Source: an uncultured Chloroflexia bacterium
Lineage (GTDB): Bacteria; Chloroflexota; Limnocylindria; Limnocylindrales; CSP1-4
Length of the DNA: 64,000 bases
Assembly (NCBI GenBank): GCA_963736895.1
Contig: CAVTQU010000008.1
Location: forward strand, 436,535 to 500,534
Direction: 5' to 3'
Position 1 is the stretch's first letter. Each line of letters opens with the position of its first letter. Below are positions 29,433-48,511 of this stretch, piece by piece. The notes beneath the pieces are model-generated. The model saw only the letters and a list, made by a program, of their open reading frames with translations, did not search any database and was not told the origin of the DNA. The translations under genes and the position numbers were made by a program.

Positions 29433-30546
29433 TTACCAGCGGGGCGCTTCCAACCGATCTGGCTGATCGGCAAGGATTACTCGGGCGGGATCCGCAGCGG
29501 GAATCGGCACCGCGGTGTCCATCGAGCGGCCAAGGATGTGCATCGCCCAATCCGGCGAGCGATAGCCGGCCTCGTCAAATCGAGCCACGTTGTCAGCGAA
29601 CAGCGGGCTCTTCTCGGGAAGACGAAGGCGCATCGACTCTCTGGCGATCGATCGGACCTTCTCGAGCAGCTCGATTGCCGGCTCGACGCCTCCCACGAGC
29701 AGGGCTGCCCGCAACGCCGAGTCTTCCGACGGCAGCTGAATCCGCGGCATGATGGCAATAGCCCAGGCGCCTGGTTTGTCACTCGAGGGACTGCCGCTGA
29801 CCACTACTTCGGCTCGCTCCAGGTGCCTCGCGAAGGCATCGCGGGTCAGCTCGTTCATCGCCCAGGCGCGGGGCTCGAAAAGGCGCAAACCGGCGTTGAA
29901 GCTCGCGTCCTCCGACACCAGCGGCCACAGCGAATCCGCGTCAACAGGATCTGCGACGAACCCGCCTCGGGTGAGCTCGCGGAGCACCCTTTCCCGCTTC
30001 GCGGTCGCAGCAGCCCGTACGTCCGCGTCGAACGCGCTTGGCTCGTCCTCGTCCGAATCGGGATCGACCGTCCACCACAGGCTGCGAAACACGACGAGCA
30101 GGTTGATTCCGTCCTTGGCGCCGAGGCGGTGCGATGCCTCGTTGTCGGCTCCCGTTGCGTAGCGGACTATCGACGCGTCCTGCGCCTCAACCCAATGTAG
30201 CTCGGCTATCTGCAGATCGGCGGCGACGCCCATTCCACGGACGCGCGGGATCGACGCGGATGCCTTCGAGCCACGCCTCTGTCGGCGCGGCGAGCGCAAC
30301 GCGGGTGATCGCGACCACCTGGCCCACATCCAGTGGATTGCCCTCGGCGTCCTGGCCGCCGGGCTCGCCAACGGTCCCGACCAGAAACGCGCCATCGGAC
30401 GCGGACAACCAGACCGGCCACGCGTTTGGGACGTAGTCCCAGCCGTGCCACGTCTGGCTGGCGAAGTCGAGGACCGACTCGCGATCCTGCTCTCTTGCTC
30501 GGCGGACAACCAGCGGCCAGGGTCGAATGTTTGCCTGCTCGCTCAC
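29433..30546 (-). CDS. GNAT-family N-acetyltransferase (frameshift near 30240)
   Basis: VRRAREQD...WDYVP...AWLEGIRVDP then RGMGVA...NEASHRL; GTG start overlaps the upstream stop. Confidence 0.75.
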
Positions 30547-31253
30547 ATCTTGGGCATTCGCTCGACCAGCGCCCATTCGGCGGTTTCCTCGCCGGGGCGA
30601 TAGCGACTGTTCGAGCCTTTCATGATCACTCCGCGGAATCCGGCGCTGCGCCAGGTGTTGAACCAGCTTCGGATCGGCGGCCGGGTCCATGGCGAGACGC
30701 GCACCAGGTCGCTCTGGCTGATGAGCGACTCGAGCACCCGTTTACGCTCGAGCAGTGGCGCATCGAACAGCGTCTGATCATCGACGCTCAGCAGGTCGAC
30801 GGCCACGAACGCTGCCACGCCTTCGCGACGCGGCCCTCGTGGCTCGTACTTCACGTCCGACTCCGGCGTGCCGCCCAGGAAGAACTTGCGAATCGGGTTG
30901 ACCGTCGGGAACATGCCGATCGCCGTGTTCTCGCCACCGGCGGTGGCTTCGCGGGTGATCACGCCGTCGATCACGGCTTCCGTGGCCTGCACGGCACGGC
31001 GCAGCTGATCGAATGCCTGGGGCGCATCGAGCGTCGCATCGTCGCCGTACTCGTCGATCACGAAGACATTGCCCCACTCGTCGGCAATCTCCGAATCGCG
31101 GTAGTAGGCCAGCACGCGCGTGCCGGTCCAGATCGGCTCGAGGATCGGATCGATCACCTCGGGTACGTAGCGACCGCGCTTGACCGTCTGCGGCCGCCAT
31201 TCGCGCGGATCCTTCGGGATCTCGGGCAGAGCTTTAGCGTCGGGCTTTGTCAT
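30543..31253 (-). CDS. ATP-dependent DNA ligase adenylation-domain homolog lacking catalytic residues
   Basis: EPIWTGTR (KxDGxR position), IDGVI, VAVDLL, LLERKRVLESL, RGVIMK, SRYRPG...W; no OB domain. Confidence 0.75.
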   Translation of the reverse strand: MTKPDAKALPEIPKDPREWRPQTVKRGRYVPEVIDPILEPIWTGTRVLAYYRDSEIADEWGNVFVIDEYGDDATLDAPQAFDQLRRAVQATEAVIDGVITREATAGGENTAIGMFPTVNPIRKFFLGGTPESDVKYEPRGPRREGVAAFVAVDLLSVDDQTLFDAPLLERKRVLESLISQSDLVRVSPWTRPPIRSWFNTWRSAGFRGVIMKGSNSRYRPGEETAEWALVERMPKM

Positions 31254-32231
31254 TCGCTGTACCCCTGCGGATGAGCCTGATGCCAGCGCCAGGCACTGCC
31301 GATCATCTCATCCAGTGTCCCGTGGCGCGGCTGCCAGCCCAGCATCTCGAACGCCTTCGCGTTCGACGCAACGAGAACGGCCGGATCGCCCTCGCGTCGC
31401 GGGGCGAAAGTGTGCGGCACTTCGTGGCCCACTACCGTCTCGGCGGCGTTGAGCATCTCGATCACGCTGAAGCCGGAGCCGGAGCCAAGATTGCACGCAA
31501 TGTGCGTGGCGCTGACCGAGGCGGTCATCTCGAGCGCCGCGATGTGCGCGTCGGCCAGGTCCAGTACGTGGATGTAGTCACGAATGCACGTTCCGTCGGG
31601 CGTGTCGTAGTCGGTGCCGTAGACCTTGAGCGACTCGCCGCCGAGCGCGGCCTGGAGCATGTTCGGGATCAGGTGGCTCTCCGGCGTGTGATCCTCGCCG
31701 CGCTCGTCTGTGGCGCCGGCAACGTTGAAGTAGCGCAGCGAGACGCCTGCCATGTCGTAGGCCCGCGCGTACCAGTCGAGAGCGGCTTCGAAGGCGCGCT
31801 TCGTCTCGCCGTAGGCATTGATCGGCTGCTTGGGAGAGTCCTCCATGATCGGCGAATTGGCCACCCCGTACACGGCGGCGCTCGACGAGAACACGATCCT
31901 GTTGACGTCCGCAGCACGCATCGCGTCGAGAAGGGCGATGCCGCCCACGACGTTGTTCTGGAAGTAGAGCGCGGGATCGACCACCGATTCGGGAGCCAGC
32001 GACCGACCGGCGCAATGGAGGACCGCGTCGATCCGACCCTCGCGCAGCACGCGTTCGACCAACAGCTTGTTCGAGTTGTCGCCCTCGATCAGCGGCGCTT
32101 CCGCGTGGAACCGCGTCACGATGACCGCGCATCAGTGAATCGAGTACGACCACGTCGTGGCCGCCGGCGACGAGCCGCTCCACCGTGACGCTGCCGACGT
32201 ATCCGGCACCGCCGGTGACCAAAACCCTCAC
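31250..32231 (-). CDS. galE: UDP-glucose 4-epimerase (frameshift near 32120)
   Basis: [49 protein letters not shown]. Confidence 0.93.
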
Positions 32232-32689
32232 TGGTTGTCTCTCACTCGCTCGTCTCTCCTGGCTTGTTGCGCTTCTCTTCGGCCGCCCGATGATCGGCCA
32301 TCGAGGGGTTGCGGTTGAACACGAACTGCTCTGACGGGCGAGCGTCCGGGTTTGGGACGTTCCGGCTGTTCGTCTGTGGCTCGGAGGCTCGGTGTCAGCG
32401 GTTGCCCGACGTCGGCGGCGGCCTGCTCGGCGTCGCGCCGGCTCAAGACCTCGGCCAGTCGCAACTCGAGACGGATCGCGGCCGCGTTCTCAGGATCGAT
32501 CTCGAGCGCACGGCGCGCCTGCTGGTACGCCAGACGATCATCGCCGCGCTCCAGCGCGACGCGCGCCAGCCCAACGACCGCGATCGCGTTGAGCGGATCC
32601 TGCTCGAGCGCGCTGGTGTAGATGCGCTCGGCCTGGTCGACCAGGCCGACGACCAGCAGTCGCTCGGCTTGCAGCAGGGCTTCGATCAC
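32228..32689 (-). CDS. Tetratricopeptide-repeat protein
   Basis: [28 protein letters not shown]...[14 protein letters not shown]; GTGA overlaps at both ends. Confidence 0.8.
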
Positions 32690-34072
32690 CGGGCGACCGC
32701 CGTCTCTTCGTGTGCGAGCCACTTGCGCGCCTCGGCGAGGAGGCTCTCGCGGCTGTTCAGTGATGGTTCGGCGATGACCAAGCCGAGGAGGCGCTCGAGC
32801 AGCTCCCCGACCACCGGGCCCGGGGCGATGCCCAGCTCGCTCACCAGGTCGTCACCGTGAACGGCCAGCTCGCGCAGGCTCAGCGGTGAACCCGGCATCC
32901 AGTTCGGCCCTGACTCGCTTGTCGAGCTCCTCGATATGGCCGGCGTCCGGTGGCAGGCCACTGCCGATGTTGTCGGCGCGTCGAAGGTTGATCAGCCGAT
33001 CGACGCGGTCGCGGCCGATGCGCCGGATGAAACGCCGAACCGCGGCGCCGCTCCAGCGCGACTCGTAGCTGAACATGTGGTTGCGCGATGAGCGCGGCCA
33101 CTGTCTCGACGTCGCGTCGCGGAAAGGCGAGGCGCGTGAGCAGCGCTTCGGCCAGCTTGGCGCCCTCCTCGTCATGGCCGATGAAATGTCCGTCGGCGAA
33201 CGTCGGCGGCTTGCCGATGTCGTGCAGCAGGGCGGTGAGCCGCAGCAGCTCATCGTCCGGATCCACCGTGGCAGCACCGTCGAGCGTCGCCAGCGAGTGG
33301 CCCCACAGGTCGTGGCCGGTGATCTTGTCCTGCGGCACGCCGCGCTGTGCCGCGAGCTCGGGCAGGGCGTGGTCCAGCACGCCGGTCTCGGCGAGGATCG
33401 CAAAGGCCCGCGAGGGCGGATCGGCCCGGATCATCTTGCGCAGCTCGTCGCCGATTCGCTCGGCAGACACCCATTGCGCCGTCTCGGCCGTGGCCGCCAT
33501 CGCCGCCAGCGTCTCCGGCTCGATCTCGAAGCCCAGCTGAGCGGCCAGACGTGCTGCGCGCAGGAGGCGAAGCGCATCCTCGTCAAATCGAACCTGCGGC
33601 TCGCCGACAGCGCGTAGCAACGCCTGCCTGAAGGTCGGCCATCCCACCGGTCGGATCGACCCAGCGCGCCGTCCGCGTCCGCATCCGCGGCTCCGCGGCC
33701 CCAGGCGATCGCGTTGACCGTGAAATCGCGCCGCGCCAGGTCCTCCTCGAGCGAATCGGTGAACGTGACCGAATCAGGGCGCCGGTGATCGGCGTAGCGA
33801 TGGTCGCGGCGGAAGGTCGTGACCTCGGCGATCGGCGTCGACCGACCAATCGTGACCGTGCCGAAGCGGTTCTTGTACTGGCTCCCCGGGAAGAGGCTCA
33901 GCGTTCGCTCGGGCAGGGCGTCGGTGGCGATGTCCCAGTCCGTGACGGGGCGTCGCAAGAGCGAATCGCGCACGCCGCCGCCCACCAGGTACGCCGCGTG
34001 GCCGTTCGACCAGAGGGTCTGGAGGATGTCCTGCACGTCGGCCGGCACATCCGGGGGTGCCGACTGCTCCAT
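32686..34072 (-). CDS. cca: CCA tRNA nucleotidyltransferase with HD domain (frameshifted)
   Basis: YLVGGGVRD, DWDIAT, RRDFTVNA, EDALRLLRAAR, ERIGDEL, LLHDIGK; about three frameshifts. Confidence 0.9.
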
Positions 34073-34088
34073 GAAGCCGATGATCGGC

Positions 34089-34605
34089 CTAGTTACGCCC
34101 GATGAACAGGTAGTCGCGCCAGGGCTCGTTGCGCGGGTCGGCGAGATACGGGGTGAACAGCGTGTAGACGTCGCAGCGCGGCTCGAACGGGTCGCGCATG
34201 AGGCGCATCCGTGCCTCGTCAGCCAGGCGGCCGCCCTTGCGGTGGTTGCAGTGCTTGCACGCGGCAACGAGGTTGTCCCAGGTGTGCGCGCCGCCGCGAT
34301 GCCGCGGAATGATGTGGTCGAGCGTCAGGTCGTGCGTCTGGACGCCGCAGTACTGGCAGGTGTACTTGTCGCGCGCAAAGATCTCCTTGCGCGACAGCCT
34401 GACACGCGGACGTGGCCGCTTGATTCGGTGGTGGAGCCGGATCACGGACGGAGCGCGGAATATCTGCCGTCGCGGTCCGAACCTCGTGATGGTCGTACTG
34501 GATGACCTCTGCCTTCTCGCCGAAGACGAGGCGAAACGCGCGTCTTACGTTGCAGACGTTGAGTGGCTCGTAGTCAGAGTTGAGAAGAAGTACGACGCTG
34601 TCCAT
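34089..34605 (-). CDS. HNH endonuclease (McrA-like; frameshift near 34465)
   Basis: VLLLNSDYEPL, PSVIRL, CQYC, TLDHIIP, WDNLVAAC-x2-CNHRKG. Confidence 0.9.
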
Positions 34606-34702
34606 CGCTCCCTGAAGCCAGCCGGGACTCGACCGGGCGACGCTCGCATCGTAGCAAGAGAACGCGTGACCTGTTCACGCTGCCGATCTGAGCGCCGCGG
34701 AC

Positions 34703-35638
34703 TCAGATCAGGCGCTGACCGGTGGCGCTGTCCCAGCCGCCGGCCTGGCCTACTTTGCTGGCGAGCGGCTTGCCCAGCGCGTCGGCGATGAATCGAGCCG
34801 CCTCGAGCACGCCTGGCGAGGCGCGCGCCATGCTCGATTCCGAGCCCATCGAGCAGGTACACGAGATCCTCCGTCGCGAGATTTCCGGCCGCGCCGGGTG
34901 CGTACGGGCAGCCACCCGTGCCGCCGGTGGACGAGTCGAAGCAGGTGACGCCGTCCTCGAGCCCGGCTACCACGTTGGCCAGCGCAGTGCCCCGCGTGTC
35001 GTGGAAGTGGTAGGCGAGCTGATCGAGCGCAATTCCTGCCGCCGATCGTGGCCGCCGTCAGGTCATGGACCTGGCTGGGCACGCCGACGCCGATCGTGTC
35101 GCCGAGGCAGATCTCGTCGGCACCGAGGTCGACCAGCCGCTGGCTGACCTCGACCACCTTGTCGATCGCAACCGCGCCGGTGAAGGGGCAGCCGAACGCC
35201 GTGGAAACGTACGCGCGCTTCCACCAGCCAAGCTCGGTGGCGCGCATCAGGACCGGCGCGAAAAGCCTCGATTGACTCGTCGATCGTCATGCCGATGTTG
35301 CGGCGCGTGAACTCGTCGCTCGCGGCGGTGAACACGGCCAGCGCGTCCGCGCCAGCTGCCTCGGCGCGCTCCATGCCGCGCATGTTGGGGACGAGGACCG
35401 GGTAGCGAACGCCGTCGCGCGGCTGGTCGCGCAGAGCCGCCATCAGGTCGTCGGCGTCGGCGAGCTGCGGGATGGCGCTCGGTGACACGAAGCTCGTCGC
35501 CTCGATCTCGCGCAGCCCGGCGTCGCGGAGCAGCTCGATGTAGCGCAGCTTCGCCTCGGTCGAGATCGGCGTCGCTTCGTTCTGGAGGCCGTCGCGCGGC
35601 CCGACTTCGTAGATGCGGACGCGAGTTGGGTAATCCAT
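34703..35638 (-). CDS. liuE: Hydroxymethylglutaryl-CoA lyase (frameshifted)
   Basis: EVGPRDGLQNE, FGCPF, LGDTIG, GGCPYAPGAAGNLATEDL. Confidence 0.92.
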
Positions 35639-35676
35639 CGGCCATTCGAGTCTAGGCCGCGTCGCGCGATCGCGTT

Positions 35677-37715
35677 CTAGGTCAGTTCCACCAGCGTCTC
35701 GGTGCGCTGGACCTGCTGTCCGCGCTGGACCAGGACGCGCACGACACGGCCCGGCGCGGGCGCGGGAATCGTGTTTTCCATCTTCATCGCCTCGAGGACC
35801 ACCAGCACCTGGCCGGCCTCGACCGTGTCTCCCTCGGCCACTCGGACGTCAATCACGGTTCCGGGCATTGGCGCGGTCACGCTTTCACCGGCGGTGCCTT
35901 CGTGGGCTGCATGTCGCGCGGCCGACTTCGACGGTCGGCGCGGGAGCGAGCCGGGCAACGATCGACCGACCATCGAGATCCAGCACGACCGACCCATCCG
36001 ACCGCAGCGGCGACGGCTGCCGCCGGTGGCCTCGGCTGGACGCAGATCGACTGTCCGCTCCTCGTCGGCGATCTCGATTCGCAGGCGTGGTGGCGCGTTG
36101 AGCCGAAAGCCGACCCGCGGCCCGAGATCACGGGCTGCCTGGCTGGCGACCGCGGCGGCGCGGTCTGCCATGCATCGGCCGGCAGCGACTCGTCACCGTG
36201 CCAGCTGTCGTCGATCAGGCCCGTGTACATGTCCCCGGCGCGAACGTCAGATCGCGCGGTGAGCCAGCGCAGGAAGCCGCGGTTGGTGGTGACGCCCAGG
36301 ACGCTGGTGTCGTCCAGCGCGGTGCTCGAGCCGATCAAGTGACTCGGCACGATCAGCTCCGTGGGCGATCAGCTTGGCCAGCAGCGGGTCATATCTCGTT
36401 CCGACGACGTCGCCGCTGCCGATGCCGGCATCGACACGCAGACCGTCGATGCGTGGCCACTCGAGACCGATGATCTCGCCCGTTGCCGGAAGGAAGCCGG
36501 CATTCGGGTCCTCGGCGTACAGCCGTGCCTCGATTGCATGGCCATCAAATCGAATCGTGCTGGCTGGACGTCTCGAGTGGCTGCGCCGGACGCGATCGCG
36601 ATCTGGTCCGCCACCAGGTCGCGGCCGGTGACGAGCTCGGTCACCGGATGCTCCACCTGCAGGCGCGCGTTGACCTCCAGGAAGTAGAAGCTCCCGTCCG
36701 AGTCGAGCAGGAACTCGACGGTGCCGGCGCCGACGTAGCCGGAGGCACGGATCAAGGTCAGCGCCGCCTCGCCGAGACGTGCGCGCAGCGGCGCGTCGAC
36801 GACGAGCGAAGGCGCCTCTTCGATCACCTTCTGGTGGCGTCGCTGGAGCGAGCACTCACGCTCGCCGAGATGGATGGCGTTGCCGTGCGCGTCCGCGAGG
36901 ATCTGCACCTCGATGTGCCTCGGCCGCGGCGAGGTAGCGCTCCAGGATCAGCCGCTCGTCGCCGAATGAAGACTGTGCCTCGCGCCGTGCACGGGCGAGC
37001 GGTCTCGACCATCTCGGCAGGCTCGGCCACCACGTGCATGCCCTTGCCGCCACCGCCGGCGCTCGGCTTGACCAGCACCGGGAAACCGATTCGCTCGGCC
37101 TCGCCGGTGAGCGTCTCGATCGGACTGGTCGTCGCCGTCGTAGCCCGTCAGGACGGGACGCCGAGCCGCGCGGCCAGCTTGCGCGCAGCGGCCTTGTCGC
37201 CGACCGCACGCATCGCTTCTGGCGGTGGGCCGATCCAGACCAGGTTTGCGTCGATGACGGCCGCGGCGAACTCGGCGTTCTCGGCCAGGAAGCCGTAGCC
37301 GGGGTGGATCGCGTCGGCGCCGGACGCGCGCGCCGCGTCGAGGATGGCCGCACCATCGAGGTAGTTGCCGCGCAGAGGGCACGATCTCGTCGGTCGCGCC
37401 CGTCCACCAGGCGCGCGCCTGATCCTCTGCGACGAGCGCAAGAGAGCGGATGCCGAGCTGTCGGCAGGTTCGGGCAATGCGAACGACCAGCTCCCCGCGG
37501 TTGGCGACCAACAGGCGGCCGATCTTCCGCGGTGACGCTGAACTCGGACGCAGGTCCGCTGGCGGACAGGAGTCGGCGAGCGCGCTCGCGTCGACCTTGA
37601 CGCGTGATCCGACCTTGACCGACGGCAGCCGTCCCTCACGCAGCCACCGCTGCACCGTTCGAGTGCTGACTCCCAGCCGTCGGGCCGCCTCGCCCGGCCC
37701 AATCGCGTCGCTCAT
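35677..37715 (-). CDS. liuD: Methylcrotonyl/acyl-CoA carboxylase alpha subunit (BC-BCCP) with N-terminal Xis-like HTH (frameshifted downstream of the HTH-BC junction)
   Basis: [26 protein letters not shown]; [62 protein letters not shown] biotinylation site. Confidence 0.88.
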
Positions 37716-37750
37716 GACGCGAATGTCGCGTTTGTCGCGTTACATGTCAA
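37715..37750 (-). promoter_or_regulatory. Leaderless promoter overlapped by three 9-bp-period direct repeats
   Basis: TTGACA (37750-37745), 17 bp, GACATT (37727-37722), 6 nt, then ATG; repeats CGCGACA, CGCGACA, CGCGTCA. Confidence 0.7.
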
Positions 37751-37753
37751 CCG

Positions 37754-39945
37754 CTAGGGCAAGCGGCGTGCGGCAAAGACGGAGACCCAAGGCGTGAACG
37801 GACTGACGATTGCCGCTGGCATCGACTGCCCGGACGCGGTAGCGATAGGTCGCCTGCCGCGGTGCCCGATTGACGTACGAGGTGCCCGTCACTGTCGCGA
37901 TCCGAGTGCTGCCTCGAAAAACCCTGTATTTGAGTGGGCCACCCTGGTCGTCCACGCTTGGGCCCCAGGTGAGTCGGACCCGTCGTCCGTCCGAGAGGTT
38001 CGCCCTTGAAGTTGGTTGGCACGTTCGGCGGAGTTACGTCAACTGGATGCAGCCTCACCCGCGTGATAGCTGCGGATCCCACGTTTCCGGACGTGTCGAC
38101 GGCCGCGACTGTGTACTCGTATGTCGCGTTTGTCGGGAGCCCGGTGTCGACGAACACTCTCGTTCCGGCGAGCAGCGTCGTTACGAGCTCGCCGTCACGC
38201 CTCACCTCGTAGCCGAGCAGCCCGACGTTGTCCCTGGCCGCCAGCCATTTCAGTCGAGCGGACGATTCGCTGGTCATCGAGGCGGTCAGTCCGAAGACCT
38301 GGCCGGGAGGGCTCATGTCGGGGACCGCGAAATCAAGCGTTGCGGCCTCGCTGACATTGCCTGCGCCATCCACCGCGTAGACGCTGAACTGGTAGGTGAC
38401 ACCCTCTTCGATGCGGACGTCGATGAGCTCCAGCTCAGGCGTGGCGGCGTAAGCGAGACCATTTCGGAAAACGCGGTAGCCGTCGACGGCCACGTCGTCG
38501 GTCGCCGCGGACCAACGTAGCGTTCCGACTCGCGGGCCGTTGACTGAGCCTGTCAGATCGGCCGGTGCGGACGGTGGCGTTGTGTCGCCGCCACCTGGTG
38601 GCGGTGGTGGAGGGGGTGGGGCAGTGTCACGGCCTATCTGGATGGACACGTCGGCACCAGTCGAATCCACGGCCAGGACGGTGACGTAGATTTTGTTGAT
38701 CGGGTCCGCGAACGTCCGGCCAACTCTCAGCGGCGCGTCAGAGAACGAGCTCGTCTCGGGCATCGTGTCGATCAGCTTCGATCGGACGGCAGCTTGATCC
38801 GGCGCGATGCGAATCGTCACTCCGTTCGTGGCGGCCGATGTCGCGGAGAAGTCGTCGAACAGCCCGTACGGCTGGCGGTACTCGAGGTAGTAGTAGTCGC
38901 CGCCTGACTTCGGTACCCGCAGGACGCGCCTGCCGCTGCCCGCCGTCTCGGCCGGCGCAATGCGGTACTTCCCCTGCGCGGTCACAGTCTGAACTTCATC
39001 GGCAGCGACCAGTCCCAGGTGCATGCGATGCCAGTTGTGGAAATGGCGCTGTCCGGTGAAGCCCATCACGTCGAACGGATCGCCGTATTCATCCAGGGAG
39101 CAGTCAGACGAAAAAGCGACCCGCACGCCGTTCTTTTTGCAGATGAGCGCCGCTGCATGGTCGAGACCAAAGTTGTGGCCGAGCTCGTGGCTGGCCACAT
39201 ACGTCGTCAGCTCGCCGTTCACCCAGCTGTTGCGGCCGGGGACACTGGCCATGCCGGACCACCAGCAGCTCTCCTGGCGCGGGAACGCGTAGACCACGTT
39301 CGTGTACTGGGTCAGATCGATGCCCGCCCTCGCAGCGGCTCTTCGGGCAGCCGATCCCCAGTCGTTGTACTCACAGCGATAGGTGCTGGTGGCGAGCGTG
39401 AAATAGCCGAAGACGTCGCCCGACAGTGCCATCTGGCCACCGGACACCTCGGCGTAATAAGCGGCCACTGAGCGCTCTCCGCTGAAGTAGAGATCGTCGA
39501 CGGTGGCCTTGGTCCAAGGCACAGCAGGTGGGCCGCTCGACGGCTGCTGGAAGTTCAGCAGGAGCACGGCCACTCGCGGAGAGGTCGGCGCGAGGCTCTG
39601 CGCACCTGTCGAGTTGAGCGTTGCGCTCGGTCCGGCCACGGTGTCGGGAGAGTTGCTCACCTCGAGCGAAGTGCCGTCGCGGTGTCCAGCAAGGCGAACC
39701 TGGGTGCCAGGGAGGAGCTGCGATTCGTCGACGCCGATCAGGACAAGGCGTCCACTGCCTGTGTCGAGCATCGCGACACGGCTCGACGTGCGACTGGCGA
39801 ACTCGTCAGCTACATCGAACGTGACGCGGCCAGCCACGATTTCGTCCGAGCCGGCAGCGATTGCCGCGTCCGGTATCGCCAGCGCGGCTGTGGCGATGAG
39901 CATCAATCCGACTGCGAGTTTGTGCTTGGTGACGGCCAAACCCAT
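37754..39945 (-). CDS. Secreted M11-like metzincin metallopeptidase with three FN3 repeats (3' frameshifts)
   Basis: Signal peptide; HELGHNFGLDH, EYGDPFDVMG Met-turn; DTTPPSAP, PDMSPPGQV and DVTPPNVP FN3 starts. Confidence 0.85.
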
Positions 39946-40058
39946 TCCCCTCTGACCGCATGCCAAAGGCCAGCCCGCGGACCGATTGTCCGATGCGCCT
40001 CAGTGGAGCAACGTGGTCCCTAATGGCCAGACAGGCAGGCACTTGCGGAGGCCGCTGA

Positions 40059-40868
40059 TCATACGTCGCCTGGTTCCCTCCAGGATGGCTCACGTTTCTC
40101 GAGGAACGCTCGCAGGCCTTCCTGGCCCTCGGCGCTGGTTCGCTGCGTAGCGATACGCCGTGCCGTGTGCCAGCGCGTCGACTCGTGCGGCAAGCCGCGG
40201 ACTTCTCGGACGATCGCCTTCGCGGCGCGGGCGGCTGTTGGCCCGGCCGCCAGCAGATCGTTGACCGCGGCATCGACGACCGAATCGAGCGCCTCTTCGC
40301 CCTCGACGACCTCATGGACGAGGCCGATGCGCAGGGCTCGCATCGCATCGAAGCGCTTGCCCGACGGGAAGAGTGCCCGGGCGTGGCTCTCCCCGATCTT
40401 GGTTATCACGAACGGGCTGATCACCGCTGGCAGGATACCGAGGCGCGTCTCGGTGAAGCCGAATTTCGCGCCGGTTTCGGCGATGACCAGGTCGCTGACC
40501 GCACACAGGCCCATGCCGCCGCCGAGCGCCGCGCCCTGGACGCGTGCGATGACCGGGACGGGGCAGGTGTCAATGGCATCGAACATCTCGGCCATGACCA
40601 TCGCGTCCTGCTCGTTCTGCTCTCGCGTCAAGCCCAGGCTCGCGCGCATCCAGGTGATGTCGGCTCCGGCGCAGAAGGACGGTCCATTGCCGGCAAGGAC
40701 GACGGCCCGCAGCTGATCTGGGGGCTCTTCGGCCAGCCTACGAAACGTTGAGCGCAGCTCCCCGATGAGCTCGGCATTGAACGCGTTGTGAACCTCCGGC
40801 CGATCGAGAGTGACGCGCGCGACGACCCCGCCCGGTCCGATCCGCGCCAGGTCGAGAGATTCGGACAT
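40059..40868 (-). CDS. liuC: Enoyl-CoA hydratase, methylglutaconyl-CoA hydratase type
   Basis: LDRPEVHNAFN, FCAGADI, GAALGGGMGL, FTETRLGILPAVISP, EGQEGLRAFLEKR. Confidence 0.88.
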   Translation of the reverse strand: MSESLDLARIGPGGVVARVTLDRPEVHNAFNAELIGELRSTFRRLAEEPPDQLRAVVLAGNGPSFCAGADITWMRASLGLTREQNEQDAMVMAEMFDAIDTCPVPVIARVQGAALGGGMGLCAVSDLVIAETGAKFGFTETRLGILPAVISPFVITKIGESHARALFPSGKRFDAMRALRIGLVHEVVEGEEALDSVVDAAVNDLLAAGPTAARAAKAIVREVRGLPHESTRWHTARRIATQRTSAEGQEGLRAFLEKREPSWREPGDV

Positions 40869-42160
40869 CAATCGGCCTGGCCGTGTGGCTCGTACTTGTA
40901 TAGGCGGCGGACGCCGATCGGGCGAAAGCCCATGCGCTGCAGGTTGGTGTTGCTTGCACCATCCGGCTCGGCCCAAGAGCCGACAAGGTCGCAGCCCTGC
41001 GCGATTGCGTGCCGGACGCGAGCGGCGATCAATGATCGCTGGATCCCCTGACCCTGGGCTTCGACCTGTACCGACGCGCCGCGCAACCAGCCCGCTCCGG
41101 CATTTACGTGGAGTGACGCGGCCCCAACAGGCTTGCCATTCAGCTCGGCGAGGAACAGCCACCGATGCGGCCACTTGGCGAGTCGCTCGTAGACCACGTG
41201 CCACGGATTTGGCTTGGTCGGATCGAGCAGACCGCTCGTAACCGCGGTGGTGCCGTGGACGTTGGAGTAGAGGCTCGCATCCTCGCGTCCGATGATGCGC
41301 ACGGTCAGGCCAGCCGGACCAGGCGCATCCGGCACGTTCAGCGGGTCCGCGGCATGGACATTGACCGTGGTCTCTGCCTCCGCGCCGGGCCAGGGAGACT
41401 CGTCGAGCCAGAGCCACCCGGCAGATTTGTGCTTGTCGTAGAACGCGTAGGCCGTGTCGATCAGGTTGGGATATTTGACGAAGCCCGAGGCGTGGTTGAA
41501 GGCGGGGCCCTCGAGCGAGGGAGCAGACGACATCGCCAGCTCACCGTCCTCCACGTAATCGATCGCAAGACCGCCGTCTATTGCCGCTCGCCACGAGGCA
41601 ATCATCGACTTTCGCTCGACCTTGTCGAGCCGGTCGAGCATCAGCCATTCGGCCGCCCTCGAATTTGGCGGAGCCGGTGTGATGGTGATCAAATCGCCTG
41701 GCTTGACTTCGCCCTCGGACAGCACCCGGGCATACATTCGACTGTCGGATGGATGCAGGTCGATCGACATGCGGCTGAATTGGCCGTCGGCGAAGTTGCC
41801 TATCTGGGTCTTGCACGGCGTCGCTGAGTTCGAGACCTCCAGCTGGAGCTCGTTGCCAACGCGGGCAATCGTGCCCACGGGCAGCAGCGACCACTCGACC
41901 CCTGTCGTAGTCAGGTTTTCGCCGACGCTCCCGGGCTCCACGGGGTGACCCTCGGCCTGGAGGCGCTCGATCGCCTCGATTCCGTACAGGCACACGGCCT
42001 GATACGGCCCGCCGTGCACCGTGTTCTCGCGGTGCTTGTCACCTTCGAGTCCGAACTTGCCGACCCAAGCCCGCTCGACCGGGCGCTTGGGCACGCCGCC
42101 GCCCGAAACGTTGACCTGAAGGACTCGACCAGTCGTCGGCAAGGCGCTGCCCGTCTTCAC
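40868..42160 (-). CDS. MOSC (YiiM-like) domain fused to GNAT domain
   Basis: VNVSGGGVPK, HGGPYQAVCLY, GENLTT, PC motif; C-terminal WLRGASV...QGQGIQRSLI, SNTNLQRMGF. Confidence 0.85.
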   Translation of the reverse strand: MKTGSALPTTGRVLQVNVSGGGVPKRPVERAWVGKFGLEGDKHRENTVHGGPYQAVCLYGIEAIERLQAEGHPVEPGSVGENLTTTGVEWSLLPVGTIARVGNELQLEVSNSATPCKTQIGNFADGQFSRMSIDLHPSDSRMYARVLSEGEVKPGDLITITPAPPNSRAAEWLMLDRLDKVERKSMIASWRAAIDGGLAIDYVEDGELAMSSAPSLEGPAFNHASGFVKYPNLIDTAYAFYDKHKSAGWLWLDESPWPGAEAETTVNVHAADPLNVPDAPGPAGLTVRIIGREDASLYSNVHGTTAVTSGLLDPTKPNPWHVVYERLAKWPHRWLFLAELNGKPVGAASLHVNAGAGWLRGASVQVEAQGQGIQRSLIAARVRHAIAQGCDLVGSWAEPDGASNTNLQRMGFRPIGVRRLYKYEPHGQAD

Positions 42161-42177
42161 GAGCCGATCCTAGTGGC

Positions 42178-42609
42178 CTATGTCCGCTCGGGCAGGTCCA
42201 TCACGTAAAGACCACATGTCTCGTCGAGCACACGCCTCACGGTGGCGTCTTCAACGGCCAACCAAAGCTCGAGCAATGGCCGCGCGATGAGCTCGTTGAG
42301 ATGTCCGCCCATCAGCGACAGATCGCGCCGGCCAAGACTGACGTGCGCATGGAGAAATGGAGCGTTCTCGCGGATCGTGACGTTGCCCACAAGGCTGATC
42401 AGCTCCATCTGCTCGTCGAAAGCATGGGTCTCGTAAGCCTTCTGCTCCCAGTTGAACCAAGAGAACGTCGCGTGCTGAACCGCCCCGAGCCCGGTGACGG
42501 AGGCGTACTCGATGCCTTGGGCAACGAGCCAGGGTGTCATCGACTCGACGAGGGGTTCGCCGGTCTCGAATCGGAGCTGGAACCGTTCACCAAACTGCTG
42601 AAATCGCAT
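42178..42609 (-). CDS. DUF296/PPC-domain protein
   Basis: VTGLGAV, MELISLVGNV, LHAHVSLG, MGGHL, ELW. Confidence 0.88.
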   Translation of the reverse strand: MRFQQFGERFQLRFETGEPLVESMTPWLVAQGIEYASVTGLGAVQHATFSWFNWEQKAYETHAFDEQMELISLVGNVTIRENAPFLHAHVSLGRRDLSLMGGHLNELIARPLLELWLAVEDATVRRVLDETCGLYVMDLPERT

Positions 42610-42800
42610 TCAGGTCGACTCCCTAAAACGGCCGAGTATCGCCTGCATCATTACCGATGCGTGAGCCGAGGGGTCAAGACCTCGACCCCACCCTCGACGA
42701 GTCGACTTCTGCGTCCGAGAATCGCTCACATCGATAATTCGGCCGTTCCGTGCGACAAGGACCTATGCGTCTTTTACGGCAGTCTTCTGCAACGCGTCTT

Positions 42801-43385
42801 ATGCCACGGTTAGTGCATGGCCTAACGATGTGGGCGATATTCGCTCTGTTTGTCGTCTGCTCATGCGCAAGCCCTGCCTCGAGCCCGGTTGCGAGCTCAG
42901 AACGGACCGCGCCGGTACGAACAGATGAAGGGAGGACAGCTGCCGTGACTTTCACATTGACCAGTTCAGCGTTCGCGGAGGGCGACCAGATCCCCGTCGA
43001 CAACACGTGTGACGGCGCCAATCAGCCGATCCCGCTCGAGTGGAGCGGCGTGCCGGATGGCACGGCCGAACTGGCGCTCATCATGGATGACCCGACCGCC
43101 CGCGGCTTCGTCCACTGGGTGGTGGTTGGGATTCCATCCGACGCGACCGGCATTCAAGGCGATCTTCCGGTGGGTGCTACAGCGGGAAAGGGCAGCTTCG
43201 CGAAGGCGGGCTACGGCGGACCCTGCCCACCGTCGGGTACCCACACCTACGACTTCACGCTCTACGCGCTGTCAGCCCCGCTCAACCTTGGTGGCACGCC
43301 GACTGCCGATCAGGTGCGCTCAGCCGCGGCCGACAAGACCATCGAGCAGGCAAAGCTCAGTGGGAGGTACACCCGCCAGCGTTAG
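42801..43385 (+). CDS. YbhB/YbcL (PEBP) family protein, probable lipoprotein
   Basis: LTSSAFAEGDQIP, LALIMDDP, FVHWVV, YGGPCPPSGTHTY-F-LYAL; start uncertain (42801 or 42828). Confidence 0.88.
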   Translation: MPRLVHGLTMWAIFALFVVCSCASPASSPVASSERTAPVRTDEGRTAAVTFTLTSSAFAEGDQIPVDNTCDGANQPIPLEWSGVPDGTAELALIMDDPTARGFVHWVVVGIPSDATGIQGDLPVGATAGKGSFAKAGYGGPCPPSGTHTYDFTLYALSAPLNLGGTPTADQVRSAAADKTIEQAKLSGRYTRQR

Positions 43386-43437
43386 TCTTCCGCGCGATGA
43401 ACGCGCGCTTGCGGCTGCTGGCGCACCGATCTGACCG

Positions 43438-44649
43438 TCAGCCGCGGCTGGTTCGGAGGAGCTCCTCACCGTCGTCGAACGTCGCCTGCGGTGACTCGTC
43501 GCCGCGCATCACGGCCCAGCCACCGGCCGCAACCAGCAACGCCAGGAACGCCAGGACGCCGATCGCGATGCTCAGGGTCGTGGCCTCGGCGATCAAGCCC
43601 ACGAGGGCTGGCCCCACGATGAAACCCGTGTAGCCGATCGTTGTAACGCGCGCGATCGCCGCGGCACGCCCGGCCGGGCTGGCAAGCCTGCCGGCACGGG
43701 CGAACAGTGCCGGAGCGACGGTGCTGATGCCGGCCCCGGCAAAGAAGAGTCCGATCAGGGCGACCAGCGGCGTGGGAGCGGCCGCGAGCACTGCCGTGCC
43801 GGCTGCAGAAACGAGGGCACCGCCCGACAGCAGCATCCGCTCGCTGAGTCGATCCCCAAACCGCTGACCAAATATGCGGCCGAGGAACATCGCTCCGGCA
43901 AACACGCCAGGCGCCGCACCTCCGAGAGCAGGCGAAGCGCCGAGGCCACCCTCGATGTGCAGCGCACTCCAGCTCTGGACGGCGTCCTCAACGAGGAACG
44001 CGGCGGCGCAGAGCGCGGCCAGGAACGCCAATCCGCCGAGGCCGGTAGCGGGCGAGCTGGAAGCAGCAGCGTCTTCGGTCTGGGAGGGCCGTTTCGCGAC
44101 ACGAGCGGTGCCGATGGAGCCGATGGCGACCACGGCGACGAACAGGGCTACGCTGATCAGCACCGGCGCCGGCCCGGCTCCGGCTTGTCGCGCCAGCCCC
44201 GTGGCAACGGCCGACACCAGAACCGCCAGCGAGAACATCGCGTGGGCGCCGAACATCAGTCGCGTCCCGCGCTCCGCTTCCACGTCGCTGACGGCCGCGT
44301 TCATGGAAACGTCCAACGCCCCGGATCCGGCTCCGGCGAGCGCTCCAAACAAGGCGAGCGTGAGAGGCGTCGTGGCAAAGATGGGTCCGACGATCGTCGC
44401 CGCGAAGATCAGGCCGCAGATCGGCAGCATCCACCAGCCCAGTCGCGGCCACAGGCGACCGGCGACGAGCATCGCCGGGATGGCGCCGACGCCCGCGAAC
44501 AGCAGCGCCACACCGAGTTCGCCATCGGTCGCGCCAACCTGAGACTTGAGATCGGGTATGAGCGCCGCCCACGCTCCCCAGAACGAGCCCAGCGCGGCGA
44601 AGCAAGCCAGCGGCCAGCGCGCGCTCATGCTTGGGCGGTCAAGCGACAT
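43438..44649 (-). CDS. Major facilitator superfamily transporter
   Basis: GSFWGAWAALIP, DVSMNAAV, GRIFGQRFGDRL, GYTGFIVGPALVG; about 12 TM helices. Confidence 0.88.
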   Translation of the reverse strand: MSLDRPSMSARWPLACFAALGSFWGAWAALIPDLKSQVGATDGELGVALLFAGVGAIPAMLVAGRLWPRLGWWMLPICGLIFAATIVGPIFATTPLTLALFGALAGAGSGALDVSMNAAVSDVEAERGTRLMFGAHAMFSLAVLVSAVATGLARQAGAGPAPVLISVALFVAVVAIGSIGTARVAKRPSQTEDAAASSSPATGLGGLAFLAALCAAAFLVEDAVQSWSALHIEGGLGASPALGGAAPGVFAGAMFLGRIFGQRFGDRLSERMLLSGGALVSAAGTAVLAAAPTPLVALIGLFFAGAGISTVAPALFARAGRLASPAGRAAAIARVTTIGYTGFIVGPALVGLIAEATTLSIAIGVLAFLALLVAAGGWAVMRGDESPQATFDDGEELLRTSRG

Positions 44650-44773
44650 CTGCGCCGATGCTACGTTGCGACCGTCCCAAGACGGATAGTCAAAGCAAAT
44701 TTGAACGCCATGGATGGCCATCGACTCATTAGGGTCGGAAGGCGTCCCCAATGGACGCCAGAAGGACTGTCAG

Positions 44774-45331
44774 GTGGATCGCGACCTCGTTGAGCAGGCG
44801 CAGAGGGGGGACCGGGAGGCCTTTGCCATCCTGGCCAGAACCCACGGTGACCGGCTCATGGCGATCGCCTACCGGATCTTGCGGGATGTCGGACGGGCCG
44901 AGGACGCCGTACAGCAGACGCTGGTGATCGCATGGCGCCAGTTGCATGGCCTCCGCGATCCGGACCGTTTCGACGCGTGGATTCAGCGCCTTCTTGTCCA
45001 CGCCAGCTACGCCGAGGCGCGTCGCTGGAAATCGTGGAATGCGAATGTTCGAGTCTTACCACTCGACGAGCCCGCTGGCCTCGATGAGGGGATGTCGGTG
45101 CACAACCGCGATCTGCTCGAACGGGGTTTCCGGCGACTGCCGCCAGACCAGCGGGCAATCCTTGTCTTTACGCATTACCTGGGCCTGACGCCAACCGAGA
45201 TTGCCGAACGACTGGAAATCCCGGTTGGCACGGCTCGTTCACGACTTCACTACGCCCACCGGGCGATGCGCGCGTCCCTCGAGGCCGATGAGCGACCGTC
45301 AGCGGTGGCAGCCGGAGGGCGCAACCGATGA
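44774..45331 (+). CDS. ECF RNA polymerase sigma factor (paralog A)
   Basis: AEDAVQQ...AWRQL, LRDPDRFDAW, EIAERLEIPVGTARSRLHYA. Confidence 0.92.
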   Translation: MDRDLVEQAQRGDREAFAILARTHGDRLMAIAYRILRDVGRAEDAVQQTLVIAWRQLHGLRDPDRFDAWIQRLLVHASYAEARRWKSWNANVRVLPLDEPAGLDEGMSVHNRDLLERGFRRLPPDQRAILVFTHYLGLTPTEIAERLEIPVGTARSRLHYAHRAMRASLEADERPSAVAAGGRNR

Positions 45332-46740
45332 CCGGTCAGCGCGAGCTCGAAAGCCTGCTCGTCGACTTCTTCGATCAGGGGCCTGTGCAGGTCGCGGACC
45401 GCGTGATCGAGGCTGCCCTCGTCGCAATTGACAGCAACACTGAGGCGCGCCGCTTGACGGCGCCGCGGAGGATCCGACTGATGAGCACCTTCAGGCGCCT
45501 CGCGGTGGCAGCCGTTTTCGGGCTGCTCGCCGTCGCGGCCGCTCTCTACTTCTCCCGGCCGCCCACGCAGATTGGCGCCACTCCCACACCGTCAGTAGGC
45601 GCCCGCTCAAGCCAGAACGTGGGCGTCGTCCCGAGTCCGACAGACTCGATGGCACCCGAAACCGCGCCGCCGACGACGCCGGTAACGCCGTCGCCTACCG
45701 CCACTTCCACTGCGACGGCTGGGGCGCTGATCGCGTACGTGCGCCAAATCGACAAGCCGGTGACCGCCATCGCGGACCCGAGCGTTTCGTGCCGACCCGT
45801 CGGCGAGGGTCCGACGTGTCCCGTGGATCGCGTGTGGCTGATCGGCACTGACGGAACAGGTTCGCGGGAACTCGTTCCCGATGGCACGGAACGGCAGCAG
45901 CTGCTCGGCTGGTCGCCCGATGGCAAGTACGTCATGTACACGGAGACCGACGTCGTGTACTTGTTCGACGTTGAGAGCGGTGAACCCGGGGCTCTCGACA
46001 TCGGATGTAAGCGGCATTGCTCAGGCGACGCAGCCCCACAGTTCTCGAGCGACGGTCAAGCCCTCGTCTTCACCCGCCGTGACCCGTCGGGCGGAAGCAT
46101 GGCTTTGGCGACGATGGATCTCGCCAGCGGTCAGATCGTCCAGCTGAGGTCGACCTCGGCCAATGGCGGGAGGAGTCCCGTCTGGGGGTGGAGTCCCGTC
46201 TGGTCTCCCGATCGCCAGCAGATTGTCTTCACCGGCGACAGTTGGGAGGCGGACCAGTTTGGTGACATGAATTGGGCCGCGTTCATCGTCGACGCGAACG
46301 GCGCGAACCTCCGTCAGGTCACTCCACCGAGCCTGGACGCGACAGATGCACGGTGGTCGCCCGATGGATCGCGGATCCTGTTCGACTCGTTCACCGCGGC
46401 GTTCGGTCCCTACATCAACACCATTCGCCCAGACGGAAGCGACCTGCGCCCGCTGATGACCGACGGCAACTCGCTTGGAGGTTCCTGGACTCCGGACGGG
46501 CGTATCTTGTTCGTGCGCAGGAGCTTTCCAAGTCAGTCCGCTTTGTGGACGATGGACGCCGATGGCGCCAACGCGACGGAGTTGATATCTGCCGATATCA
46601 CCGGCATCCGCGGCCTGCCCAATTCCATGTACTCCCCGAATGCGGCGTTCTGGCAACCGAGCGGCGGAGCGGCAATCGTGCCTCCGCCGTGGAATCCCCA
46701 CGTCGGCGACCCCGTTGGACCGCCGGCGCCGACACCCTAG
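45328..46740 (+). CDS. Putative anti-sigma factor with TolB/PD40-like beta-propeller
   Basis: ATGA-coupled to the sigma gene; short cytoplasmic N-terminus, TM helix, P/T linker, repeated WSPDG blades. Confidence 0.75.
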   Translation: MTGQRELESLLVDFFDQGPVQVADRVIEAALVAIDSNTEARRLTAPRRIRLMSTFRRLAVAAVFGLLAVAAALYFSRPPTQIGATPTPSVGARSSQNVGVVPSPTDSMAPETAPPTTPVTPSPTATSTATAGALIAYVRQIDKPVTAIADPSVSCRPVGEGPTCPVDRVWLIGTDGTGSRELVPDGTERQQLLGWSPDGKYVMYTETDVVYLFDVESGEPGALDIGCKRHCSGDAAPQFSSDGQALVFTRRDPSGGSMALATMDLASGQIVQLRSTSANGGRSPVWGWSPVWSPDRQQIVFTGDSWEADQFGDMNWAAFIVDANGANLRQVTPPSLDATDARWSPDGSRILFDSFTAAFGPYINTIRPDGSDLRPLMTDGNSLGGSWTPDGRILFVRRSFPSQSALWTMDADGANATELISADITGIRGLPNSMYSPNAAFWQPSGGAAIVPPPWNPHVGDPVGPPAPTP

Positions 46741-46818
46741 CTACGCCACGCACGAGCCGGCGCCCGGTTTCACGGGACTCGGCGGGTCTCTACGAGACGT
46801 GAGCTCGCAGACCGCTGA

Positions 46819-48450
46819 TCACATCCGGAAGACGCCGAACTTGGTCTCCGATATCGGCGCGTTCAGAGCCGCGCCAATGGCGATCGCCAGCACGTCGCGC
46901 GTCTGGGCGGGGTCGATCACGCCGTCGTCCCAGAGTCGGGCGGTCGAGTAATAGGGATTGCCCTCGCGCTCGTATTTCGCGCGGATCTCCTCGCGGTAGG
47001 CCTCCCGCTCCTCCTCGGAGCCGAACGTGCCGACCATCGACAGCACCATCGCCGCCTGTTCGCCGCCCATCACGCTGATGCGCGCGTTGGGCCACATCCA
47101 CAGCCCGCGGCTGCCGTAGGCACGGCCGGCCATGCCGTAGTTCCCGGCGCCGAACGAGCCGCCGATGATCACCGTGAACTTGGGCACGGACGTGGTCGCC
47201 ACGGCCGTCACCAGCTTCGCGCCGTCCTTGGCTATGCCGCCGGCTTCGTATTCGCGCCCGACCATGAAGCCGGTGATGTTCTGCAGGAACACCAGCGGCA
47301 CCCGGCGCTGCGAAGCGAGCTCGATGAAGTGCGCACCCTTCAACGCCGATTCGCTGAACAGCACGCCGTTGTTGGCGAGGATGCCGATTGGATAGCCATC
47401 CAAGTGGGCAAAGCCGGTCACCAGCGTCTCGCCGTAGCCGGCCTTGAACTCGTGGAACTCGGACCCATCCACCAGGCGGGCGATCACCTCGTGGACGTCG
47501 TACCCGCGCCGCAGGTCGGGTGTCACCGCGCCGTAGATCCCGTACGGATCGTCGGCCGCCACCGCGTCATCTGGATCGGGCGTGGCCACGGCTGGTTGTC
47601 GGAAGGCGAGTCGGGCCCACGGCGCTTCGGGCTTCTTCCAGGCCAGGCTGGCGATGATCTCTCGTCCGATCGCCAGCGCGTGCTCGTCATCGAGCGCCTC
47701 GTGGTCTGCCACGCCGCTGATGCGGGCGTGGACGCTGGCTCCGCCGAGCTCCTCGGCCGTGACGTCCTCGCCGGTCGCAGCCTTCACCAATGGCGGGCCG
47801 CCGAGGAAGATCGTCCCGGTGCCGCGGACGATGACCGTCTCGTCGCTCATGGCCGGCACGTACGCGCCACCGGCCGTGCTGCTGCCCATGACCAGCGCGA
47901 CCTGCGCGATGCCCGCCGCCGACATCTGCGCCTGGTTGTAGAAGATGCGGCCGAAGTGCTCGCGGTCGGGAAACACGTCGTCCTGGAGCGGCAGGAAGGC
48001 GCCGCCCGAGTCGACCAGATAGATGCACGGCAGGTGGTTGGCGAGCGCGATCTCCTGGGCGCGCAGGTGCTTCTTGACGGTCATCGGGTAGTAGGTGCCG
48101 CCCTTCACGGTCGCGTCGTTGGCGACGATCACGACATCGGTGCCGCTGACCCTGCCGATGCCCGTGACCATGCCGGCGCCGGGGGCCTCGTCGTCGTACA
48201 TGCCGTTGGCGGCGAGTGGCGACAGCTCGAGGAAGGCAGCTCCTGGGTCGAGCAGTCTGTCTATCCGTTCGCGAACAGGGAGCTTGCCGCGCTCACGATG
48301 TCGGGCGATCGACCGCTCGTCGCCGGCCGCGCCACGCTCGCTGATCGCGGCCGTCTTGGCGCGCAGCTCAGCCACCAACGCACGCATCGCGGCCGCGTTC
48401 GCCCGCGCCTCATCGCTGGTTGGGTCGACTCGCGTCGTCAGCACGGCCAC
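46819..48450 (-). CDS. liuB: Methylcrotonyl-CoA carboxylase beta (carboxyltransferase) subunit
   Basis: [61 protein letters not shown]. Confidence 0.93.
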
Positions 48451-48481
48451 GCGCCGATGTTACGGGCACGGGGATACGAAG

Positions 48482-48511
48482 AGGCGCCGAGTCCTTACGA
48501 ACTCGGCGCCT
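48482..48511 (-). terminator. 11-bp hairpin terminator after the lipoprotein gene
   Basis: AGGCGCCGAGT...ACTCGGCGCCT, followed on the minus strand by CTTCGT. Confidence 0.55.

Follow-up and report, generated by a model that had tools for sequence, protein, structure and literature searches.

Few metabolic enzymes have been studied as thoroughly as the biotin-dependent carboxylases, and to our knowledge none of these carboxylases carries a DNA-binding domain. Here we describe a gene that joins the two. It lies in a 64,000-nucleotide stretch (hereafter the window) of contig CAVTQU010000008.1, positions 436,535 to 500,534 of the forward strand, from an uncultured Chloroflexia bacterium placed in the Limnocylindria (GenBank assembly GCA_963736895.1). 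The Limnocylindria are an abundant, uncultured lineage of soil and freshwater. The gene, which we call HTH-mccA or simply mccA, encodes a small winged helix-turn-helix (wHTH) domain followed by the alpha subunit of an enzyme of the 3-methylcrotonyl-CoA carboxylase (MCC) type, and its 5' end carries 9-bp direct repeats that overlap the predicted promoter. The features of the locus are collected in Table 1.

Table 1. Features of the HTH-mccA locus, in window positions
Feature	Position	Strand	Remark
HTH-mccA gene: HTH_17, linker, biotin carboxylase, BT domain, biotin carboxyl carrier protein (BCCP) domain	35677..37715	minus	about 10 frame changes; stop codon 35677-35679
Open reading frame (ORF) with the fusion junction	36948..37715	minus	start codon is the ATG at 37715
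wHTH domain, HTH_17/TIGR01764 excisionase class, residues 4-47	37575..37706	minus	
Flexible linker, residues 48-64	37524..37574	minus	variable among relatives; low AlphaFold2 (AF2) confidence
Biotin carboxylase (Biotin_carb_N, ATP-grasp, Biotin_carb_C)	36159..37523	minus	catalytic motifs present
BT domain and BCCP	35680..36158	minus	Biotin_lipoyl at about 35680-35883, with biotinylation motif EAMKMEN
Predicted -35 hexamer TTGACA	37745..37750	minus	conserved in the genus
Predicted -10 hexamer GACATT	37722..37727	minus	17 nt after the -35 hexamer, 6 nt before the A of the ATG
Three head-to-tail 9-bp units, AACGCGACA, AACGCGACA and TTCGCGTCA	37715..37741	minus	last base is the A of the ATG
3-Hydroxy-3-methylglutaryl-CoA (HMG-CoA) lyase, liuE	34700..35638	minus	38 nt downstream of mccA; 3 frame changes
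Enoyl-CoA (methylglutaconyl-CoA-type) hydratase	40059..40856	minus	directly upstream of the HTH-mccA promoter in most relatives

A helix-turn-helix domain in frame with a carboxylase subunit

The reading frame that opens at the mccA ATG runs through the HTH domain, a 17-residue linker rich in Pro, Ser and Ala, and into the start of the biotin carboxylase (BC) domain without a stop codon. Pfam places HTH_17 at residues 8-47 of this ORF (E 3e-10; 40.6 bits against a cut-off of 27) and Biotin_carb_N from residue 65, and finds CPSase_L_D2, Biotin_carb_C and Biotin_lipoyl in frameshifted pieces 3' of the junction. The initial annotation, made from the window alone, had read the gene as an in-frame fusion with no ATG or GTG ahead of the BC domain. 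Both points hold: the junction is open, relatives encode the fusion as intact single ORFs, and the interval between the two domains contains no in-frame ATG or GTG in the window ORF. The sole alternative start is a TTG at Leu69, inside strand 1 of the BC domain; a GTG at codon 21 falls within the HTH.

The enzyme part carries the BC catalytic motifs and the biotinyl-lysine motif AMKM, and its body superposes on the alpha subunits of MCC and propionyl-CoA carboxylase (PCC), including those of human MCC (8j7d), Trypanosoma brucei (8rth) and Pseudomonas aeruginosa (3u9s), at 42-43% identity, with MCC alpha subunits as the highest-ranking structural matches. It looks catalytically complete and of the MCC alpha type, to judge from its motifs and homologues, and this agrees with the earlier assignment: the BC-BT-BCCP set is present and sits within a liu-like cluster. 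In such carboxylases the preference for 3-methylcrotonyl-CoA over geranyl-CoA or propionyl-CoA resides in the beta subunit.

The window copy is not clean. Ungapped tblastn with an intact orthologue as query locates about ten frame changes, those in the BC region near 37375, 37160, 37076, 37000, 36928, 36570 and 36324. All lie downstream of the junction, so the fusion is independent of the indels, as had been proposed. The damage extends to the neighbours. HMG-CoA lyase is affected as well, the CCA-adding enzyme has four frame changes and the next two genes have one each. They cluster at about 30,000-38,000 of the window; the segment from 40,000 to 48,500, with the carboxyltransferase gene mccB, a PCC-domain gene, a MOSC-GNAT gene and the hydratase, has none. 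The essential gyrA, elsewhere on the contig, likewise carries frame changes. The genome is in 11 contigs (3.0 Mb, 66% G+C, estimated completeness 59%), and the stretch from 30,000 to 38,000 is probably a poorly polished part of a long-read metagenome-assembled genome (MAG). Because the frame changes are regional and hit essential genes, we attribute them to local long-read indel error and not to gene decay. With the CCA-adding enzyme and gyrA broken too, we reject the reading of the window copy as a pseudogene.

The same fusion is found throughout the class. A query made of residues 1-115, which cover the HTH, the linker and the beginning of BC, recovered single frames of 668-746 residues from 18 of the 24 genomes of the genus. 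At E <= 1e-12 the fusion is present in 117 of 251 Limnocylindria genomes, spanning 31 of 53 genera and two families, and it was found in none of the genomes from outside the Limnocylindria in a sample of 401 Chloroflexota (about 350 from other classes). Across the class it is one ORF of 660-700 residues, in short-read and long-read MAGs alike. A word-seeded search with the HTH alone against 5.8 billion proteins returned 113 clusters, 112 of them with PF12728 together with BC domains; the sources are Candidatus Limnocylindria and Limnocylindrales MAGs, where the proteins are named 'excisionase family DNA binding protein', 'MCC alpha subunit' or 'biotin carboxylase N-terminal domain-containing protein'. 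Scanning a single genome per species gave 240 loci. Among the best 80, which were examined, 75 are fused in one ORF; in the remaining five, all long-read MAGs, the frame shifts after the HTH. Chloroflexi bacterium CSP1-4 is among these 80. Their labels are mostly Limnocylindria, Limnocylindrales, Chloroflexota or Chloroflexia; a few MAGs are labelled Anaerolineaceae, Egibacteraceae, Sulfotelmatobacter or Steroidobacteraceae, and these labels are probably mis-assigned.

Could the fusion be an artefact or pseudogene of an error-rich assembly, the HTH and BC being in truth separate genes? The ten or so frameshifts of the window copy invite the question, and so does one relative, G110, in which an in-frame TGA stands between the two domains. 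Yet the window sequence runs through the junction without a stop, the frame changes are a feature of the region and strike essential genes as well, and more than 100 independent assemblies, many of them short-read, show a single ORF. Since the same uninterrupted ORF recurs in the genus, in the class and in 75 of the 80 named genomes, the junction is not an assembly artefact. For the family this explanation is refuted, and we give it almost no credence. The comparison with homologues suggested in the initial annotation, a search for the HTH plus BC architecture, returned intact fusions across the class and one case, G110, of a TGA in between. In that locus (L108, G110:C1; family f1, genus g12) the HTH of about 45 residues and the BC domain share a frame broken by the single TGA. 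The two domains may truly be split there, the TGA may be a sequencing error, or it may be read through. An apparent fusion of the HTH to enoyl-CoA hydratase (P0115) was rejected as the read-through product of a frameshifted long-read contig.

Most fusion-negative genera are without any copy of this mccA orthologue. With the enzyme body alone as query, an orthologue without the HTH was found in a minority: family f3, genus g3, and the genomes G116, G169 and G205. Taken together, these sequence comparisons show the fusion to be genuine, ancient within the Limnocylindria and kept under strong selection.

No account of an HTH-carboxylase fusion turned up in full-text literature searches, in line with the earlier remark that no description was known. 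It is not rare, though: hundreds of automatically named database entries already contain it. The 'helix-turn-helix' mentioned in a preprint on Legionella MCC is a structural motif of the beta subunit and is unrelated.

Fold and conservation of the DNA-binding domain

The initial annotation had assigned the domain to the HTH_17/excisionase class of MerR-like wHTH domains. Profile scores and fold matches both support this. TIGR01764 scores 47.5 bits against a cut-off of 28.8, and the match to PF00376 is confined to residues 7-32. An AF2 model of the intact protein of a genus-mate, built on an alignment of 45 sequences (52-69% identity overall), has a mean predicted local distance difference test (pLDDT) score of 90.9. 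Residues 4-42 form a strand, two helices and a beta-hairpin wing (H7-14, H18-26, E32-35, E38-42) with pLDDT 83-92; residues 45-60 are of low confidence and the linker is disordered. The wing leads into this linker and then into BC strand 1, with neither a MerR coiled coil nor an effector domain. Foldseek matches the isolated domain to Pukovnik Xis (4j2n), to BldC bound to DNA (6ama and 6amk; root mean square deviation (rmsd) 1.7-2.0 Å), to RacA, to RdfS and to the N-terminal domains of MerR proteins, and searching the PDB by sequence returns these same proteins. The window's own genome holds no close paralogue of the domain.

Eleven residues are invariant in the 45 sequences (P7, A11, R19, T20, V21, Q22, R23, W24, G28, L30 and G36). 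The recognition helix RTVQRW is invariant class-wide, and the linker is free to vary in length and sequence. R23 is the Arg of TVQRW; its counterpart in the alignment with BldC is the TVTRW Arg, which makes a base-specific contact and reads a G in the BldC-DNA structures (PMC5859096).

BldC is one of the closest known parallels. Like the domain described here it is a MerR-like wHTH reduced to its minimum, with no coiled coil and no effector domain, the two differ by about 2 Å rmsd, and both have a TVxRW recognition helix. In Streptomyces, BldC is a free 68-residue pleiotropic developmental regulator whose units are AT-rich, AATTxxxxC (PMC5859096). Our domain, by contrast, does not stand alone: it is joined to about 610 residues of carboxylase subunit, and its candidate units are GC-rich, GCGACAnnn, at one locus per genome. 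The best matches in sequence and fold are the excisionases and recombination directionality factors (lambda Xis, Pukovnik Xis 4j2n, RdfS), which oligomerise head-to-tail on direct repeats. Those proteins serve the site-specific recombination of mobile elements, whereas the fusion protein is a core metabolic enzyme, and neither an integrase nor an att context was found at the fusion locus.

The earlier link to LiuR, the proteobacterial regulator of the liu genes, survives as an analogy only. LiuR serves the same pathway and has a MerR-type wHTH, but it is a protein in its own right, a full-length MerR dimer that includes a coiled coil and an effector domain and binds palindromes. The fused domain has no such parts, and the mccA promoter has a 17-bp spacer and direct repeats in place of the palindrome and 19-20-bp spacer of a classical MerR operator. 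Activation by the MerR mechanism is rejected in view of this spacer and the lack of a dimerisation helix.

Nine-base-pair repeats on the predicted mccA promoter

The 5' layout of mccA is conserved in the genus: TTGACA, 17 nt, GACATT, 6 nt and the start codon. No Shine-Dalgarno (SD) sequence accompanies this layout. In the window genome (G000), the distance of TANNNT hexamers from predicted start codons has a sharp maximum at exactly 6 nt, with 106 cases where the background is about 9. Leaderless transcripts appear to be common there, beside SD-led genes, and the spacing seen at mccA is the usual one. From the geometry, the missing SD sequence and this genome-wide peak, we infer that the mccA mRNA is leaderless and made from its own promoter. 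The mccA hexamer is not the usual one: GACAWT is not a general -10 box in this genome, and mccA has G at -12 where TANNNT is the rule.

A comparison of 42 upstream regions from more than 25 genera brings out a single motif. In 28 of the 42 loci the start codon follows directly (0 nt) on the conserved 14-mer GCGACAWTCGCGNC, and just upstream of this 14-mer the information content falls to background. In family f4 the motif is invariant as tGCGACAATCGCGAC|ATG. The 14-mer is itself a 9-bp direct repeat, with the unit GCGACAnnn and two or three units per promoter, and the units overlap the spacer, the -10 box and the predicted transcription start. This period carries meaning because the units to which BldC binds head-to-tail are also 9 bp long; whiI has two of them and smeA four (PMC5859096). 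Their number varies in BldC targets, and the mccA promoters have two or three candidate units. The exact 14-mer is nearly unique within each genome. Of 15 genomes, 13 have the exact 14-mer only at mccA and two have a second exact copy; in one of the 15 the mccA site itself differs from the 14-mer by one mismatch. In the window's own genome the mccA promoter site is the top match to the position weight matrix (PWM). One locus, L028 (G189, genus g17), has GATGCGCGACAATCGCG twice in tandem, 26 nt apart, 5' of the start codon.

Nature provides a comparison in the orthologues that lack the HTH. Those of family f3, genus g25, keep GGCGACAAT 8-9 nt before the ATG, and G116 has CCACAAT-N6-GTG. The other HTH-less orthologues are coupled to translation of the hydratase, by a GTGA overlap or, in G205, by an SD sequence. 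At most, then, HTH-less orthologues retain the first unit, that is, the -10 box. The second unit, CGCGAC at -6..-1, is absent in all six g25 loci and in every other HTH-less orthologue examined (about 19 in total). This is suggestive evidence that the site is a direct repeat only where the HTH is present.

These data bear on whether the domain has a role on DNA at all. It might instead be a module for protein-protein contact or assembly, or a tolerated relic, in which case the motif would be nothing but a leaderless promoter, a -10 box with a GC-rich discriminator. GACAAT or GACATT does lie at the -10 position expected for a leaderless mRNA, a TG precedes it in f4 in the style of an extended -10, the HTH-less g25 orthologues retain GGCGACAAT, and orthologues without the HTH exist and are presumably functional. 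A relic, however, would hardly keep six consecutive recognition-helix residues invariant, the DNA-reading Arg position among them, at class-level divergence. Nor would a promoter alone be expected to have an invariant CGCGAC discriminator that repeats the GCGAC flanking the -10 box at a 9-bp phase, or to lose that discriminator whenever the HTH is lost. We regard the absence of a DNA role as unlikely, though it deserves to be kept in mind.

Is the mccA promoter the only candidate site? A PWM scan for a wider regulon gave no convincing site in the window genome beyond it. Two extra copies of GCGACAAACGCGACA in that genome are coding coincidences, encoding YDKRDI in DnaE and PTNATYEY in a peptidase with fibronectin type III (FN3) repeats. 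A GCGACATTCGCGAC sequence recurrent in f4 genomes was rejected as an operator, as it encodes SDIRDESD in gyrA. Upstream of gyrA, f4 genomes have three to four tandem 9-bp CGACAnnnn units, for example GCGACATTC GCGACATTC GCGACAATG, 20-45 nt before the start codon (L095, L096, L101 and G046/G126/G194/G260). Families f1 and f3, the window genome included, have no such arrays at gyrA. A tie between the arrays and the fusion is not supported: the arrays are confined to f4, while f1 carries the fusion. Eleven of 20 f4 loci (L038-L051) also have an inverted, 9-bp-phased GTCGC pair at +122..+134 in the gene, coinciding with the codons of the conserved wing-end motif VSRSSL. It occurs only in f4 and is absent from the window's genus, so it was dropped as a shared element.

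The gyrA arrays are part of what could be said for a different use of DNA binding. The HTH may bind DNA without being a gene-specific repressor, tethering or organising the carboxylase on the nucleoid in the manner of RacA or Xis, or acting elsewhere, for example at the f4 arrays. RacA, Xis and RdfS are among its nearest folds, and higher-order MCC filaments are known in other organisms. But the single motif common to the fusion genes sits on their own promoter, the window genome has no other good sites, and the arrays are missing from f3 and from fusion-bearing f1. We consider such a role rather improbable.

Gene neighbourhood, proposed autoregulation and significance

The surroundings of mccA speak of leucine catabolism. 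The HMG-CoA lyase scores 365 bits with model NF004283 against a cut-off of 246, and liuE is probably co-transcribed with mccA. The hydratase resembles the gamma-carboxygeranoyl-CoA hydratase model as well. In a genus-mate with a clean sequence the order is carboxyltransferase, three small genes, PCC-domain gene, MOSC-GNAT, enoyl-CoA hydratase, HTH-mccA, HMG-CoA lyase, HNH and CCA-adding enzyme; the window has the identical order except for an FN3-rich peptidase between the hydratase and mccA. By its gene content the locus is a liu-type cluster. The carboxyltransferase gene mccB lies about 9 kb from mccA in the window, in a separate transcription unit. The solved MCC alpha subunits of P. aeruginosa (3u9s), human (8j7d) and Mycobacterium smegmatis (9yx0) share the BC-BT-BCCP order at 37-43% identity, and the logic of the gene neighbourhood is the same.

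Two further features of the neighbourhood are worth recording. The FN3 peptidase (37747-39966, minus strand; about 740 residues) has a HELGH zinc-metalloprotease-like motif and several FN3-like repeats. Its insertion between the hydratase and mccA is seen in the window and in G005 and is absent in G002; its C-terminal end is frameshifted, and the corrected stop overlaps the mccA -35 box. Directly 5' of the hydratase lie a PCC/DUF296 gene and a MOSC-GNAT fusion, coupled to the hydratase and conserved (40868-42609 on the minus strand of the window; 5855-7811 in L016).

We hypothesize that the tethered HTH domains attach to the promoter repeats in the manner of BldC and autorepress a leaderless mccA-liuE unit. 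Two to three HTH domains would bind the candidate GCGACAnnn units head-to-tail. Once bound they would cover the -10 box, the discriminator and the start codon and occlude RNA polymerase, and the mccA-liuE unit would be autorepressed. Such feedback could match synthesis of the alpha subunit to need or to the available beta subunit, as mccB is transcribed from a separate locus. We consider this the best reading, with about as much for it as against it. The self-regulation put forward in the initial annotation is favoured by the invariant recognition helix and by a repeat motif placed on the gene's own -10 box and start; what detracts from it is that half of the motif is the -10 box itself.

Several observations weigh against autorepression. 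The first repeat unit doubles as the -10 box, and as this unit is kept in the HTH-less f3/g25 loci, part of the motif's conservation is simply promoter. The GC-rich discriminator could have a promoter role of its own. The third unit is coding, and its synonymous sites vary, a pattern in keeping with constraint at the level of the protein. The contrast between loci with and without the HTH rests on few independent evolutionary events. The BldC family model NF033787 scores only 22.8 bits against a cut-off of 77, and the wHTH relatives RacA and Xis are architectural proteins rather than regulators. Finally, no second site was found upstream of mccB, the enoyl-CoA hydratase or other liu genes, so the control would be local autoregulation at most.

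The carboxylase might also be the sensor. In this more elaborate scheme alpha subunits that are free or idle, or the trimeric alpha caps with which an alpha6-beta6 particle presents three HTH domains, would polymerise BldC-style on the 9-bp units, and occupancy of the promoter would report alpha:beta assembly or catalytic state; in f4 the domain may also occupy the CGACA arrays at gyrA. We think this a long shot. Gating of DNA binding by beta-subunit assembly, by biotin or biotinylation, or by acyl-CoA or ATP, as the initial annotation had suggested, is pure speculation.

Autorepression by the fused HTH would place the protein among the trigger enzymes. BirA, PutA and NadR, like this protein, combine catalytic and DNA-binding domains in one polypeptide, and here the operator is a candidate. 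BirA, the biotin ligase and bio repressor, also shares a connection to biotin metabolism with the fusion protein. It differs in having another wHTH and in dimerising on a palindrome when loaded with biotinyl-AMP.

A class-wide fusion with a candidate operator on its own, apparently leaderless promoter is a testable case of an enzyme subunit controlling its own synthesis. If autorepression is true, it would extend the trigger-enzyme concept, and the direct-repeat binding of BldC and Xis, to central catabolism. If the carboxylase acts as sensor, it would be the first biotin-dependent carboxylase to act as a transcription factor, and if the f4 gyrA arrays are bound as well, leucine catabolism would be tied to gyrase expression. 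The fusion gives a handle on gene regulation in the Limnocylindria.

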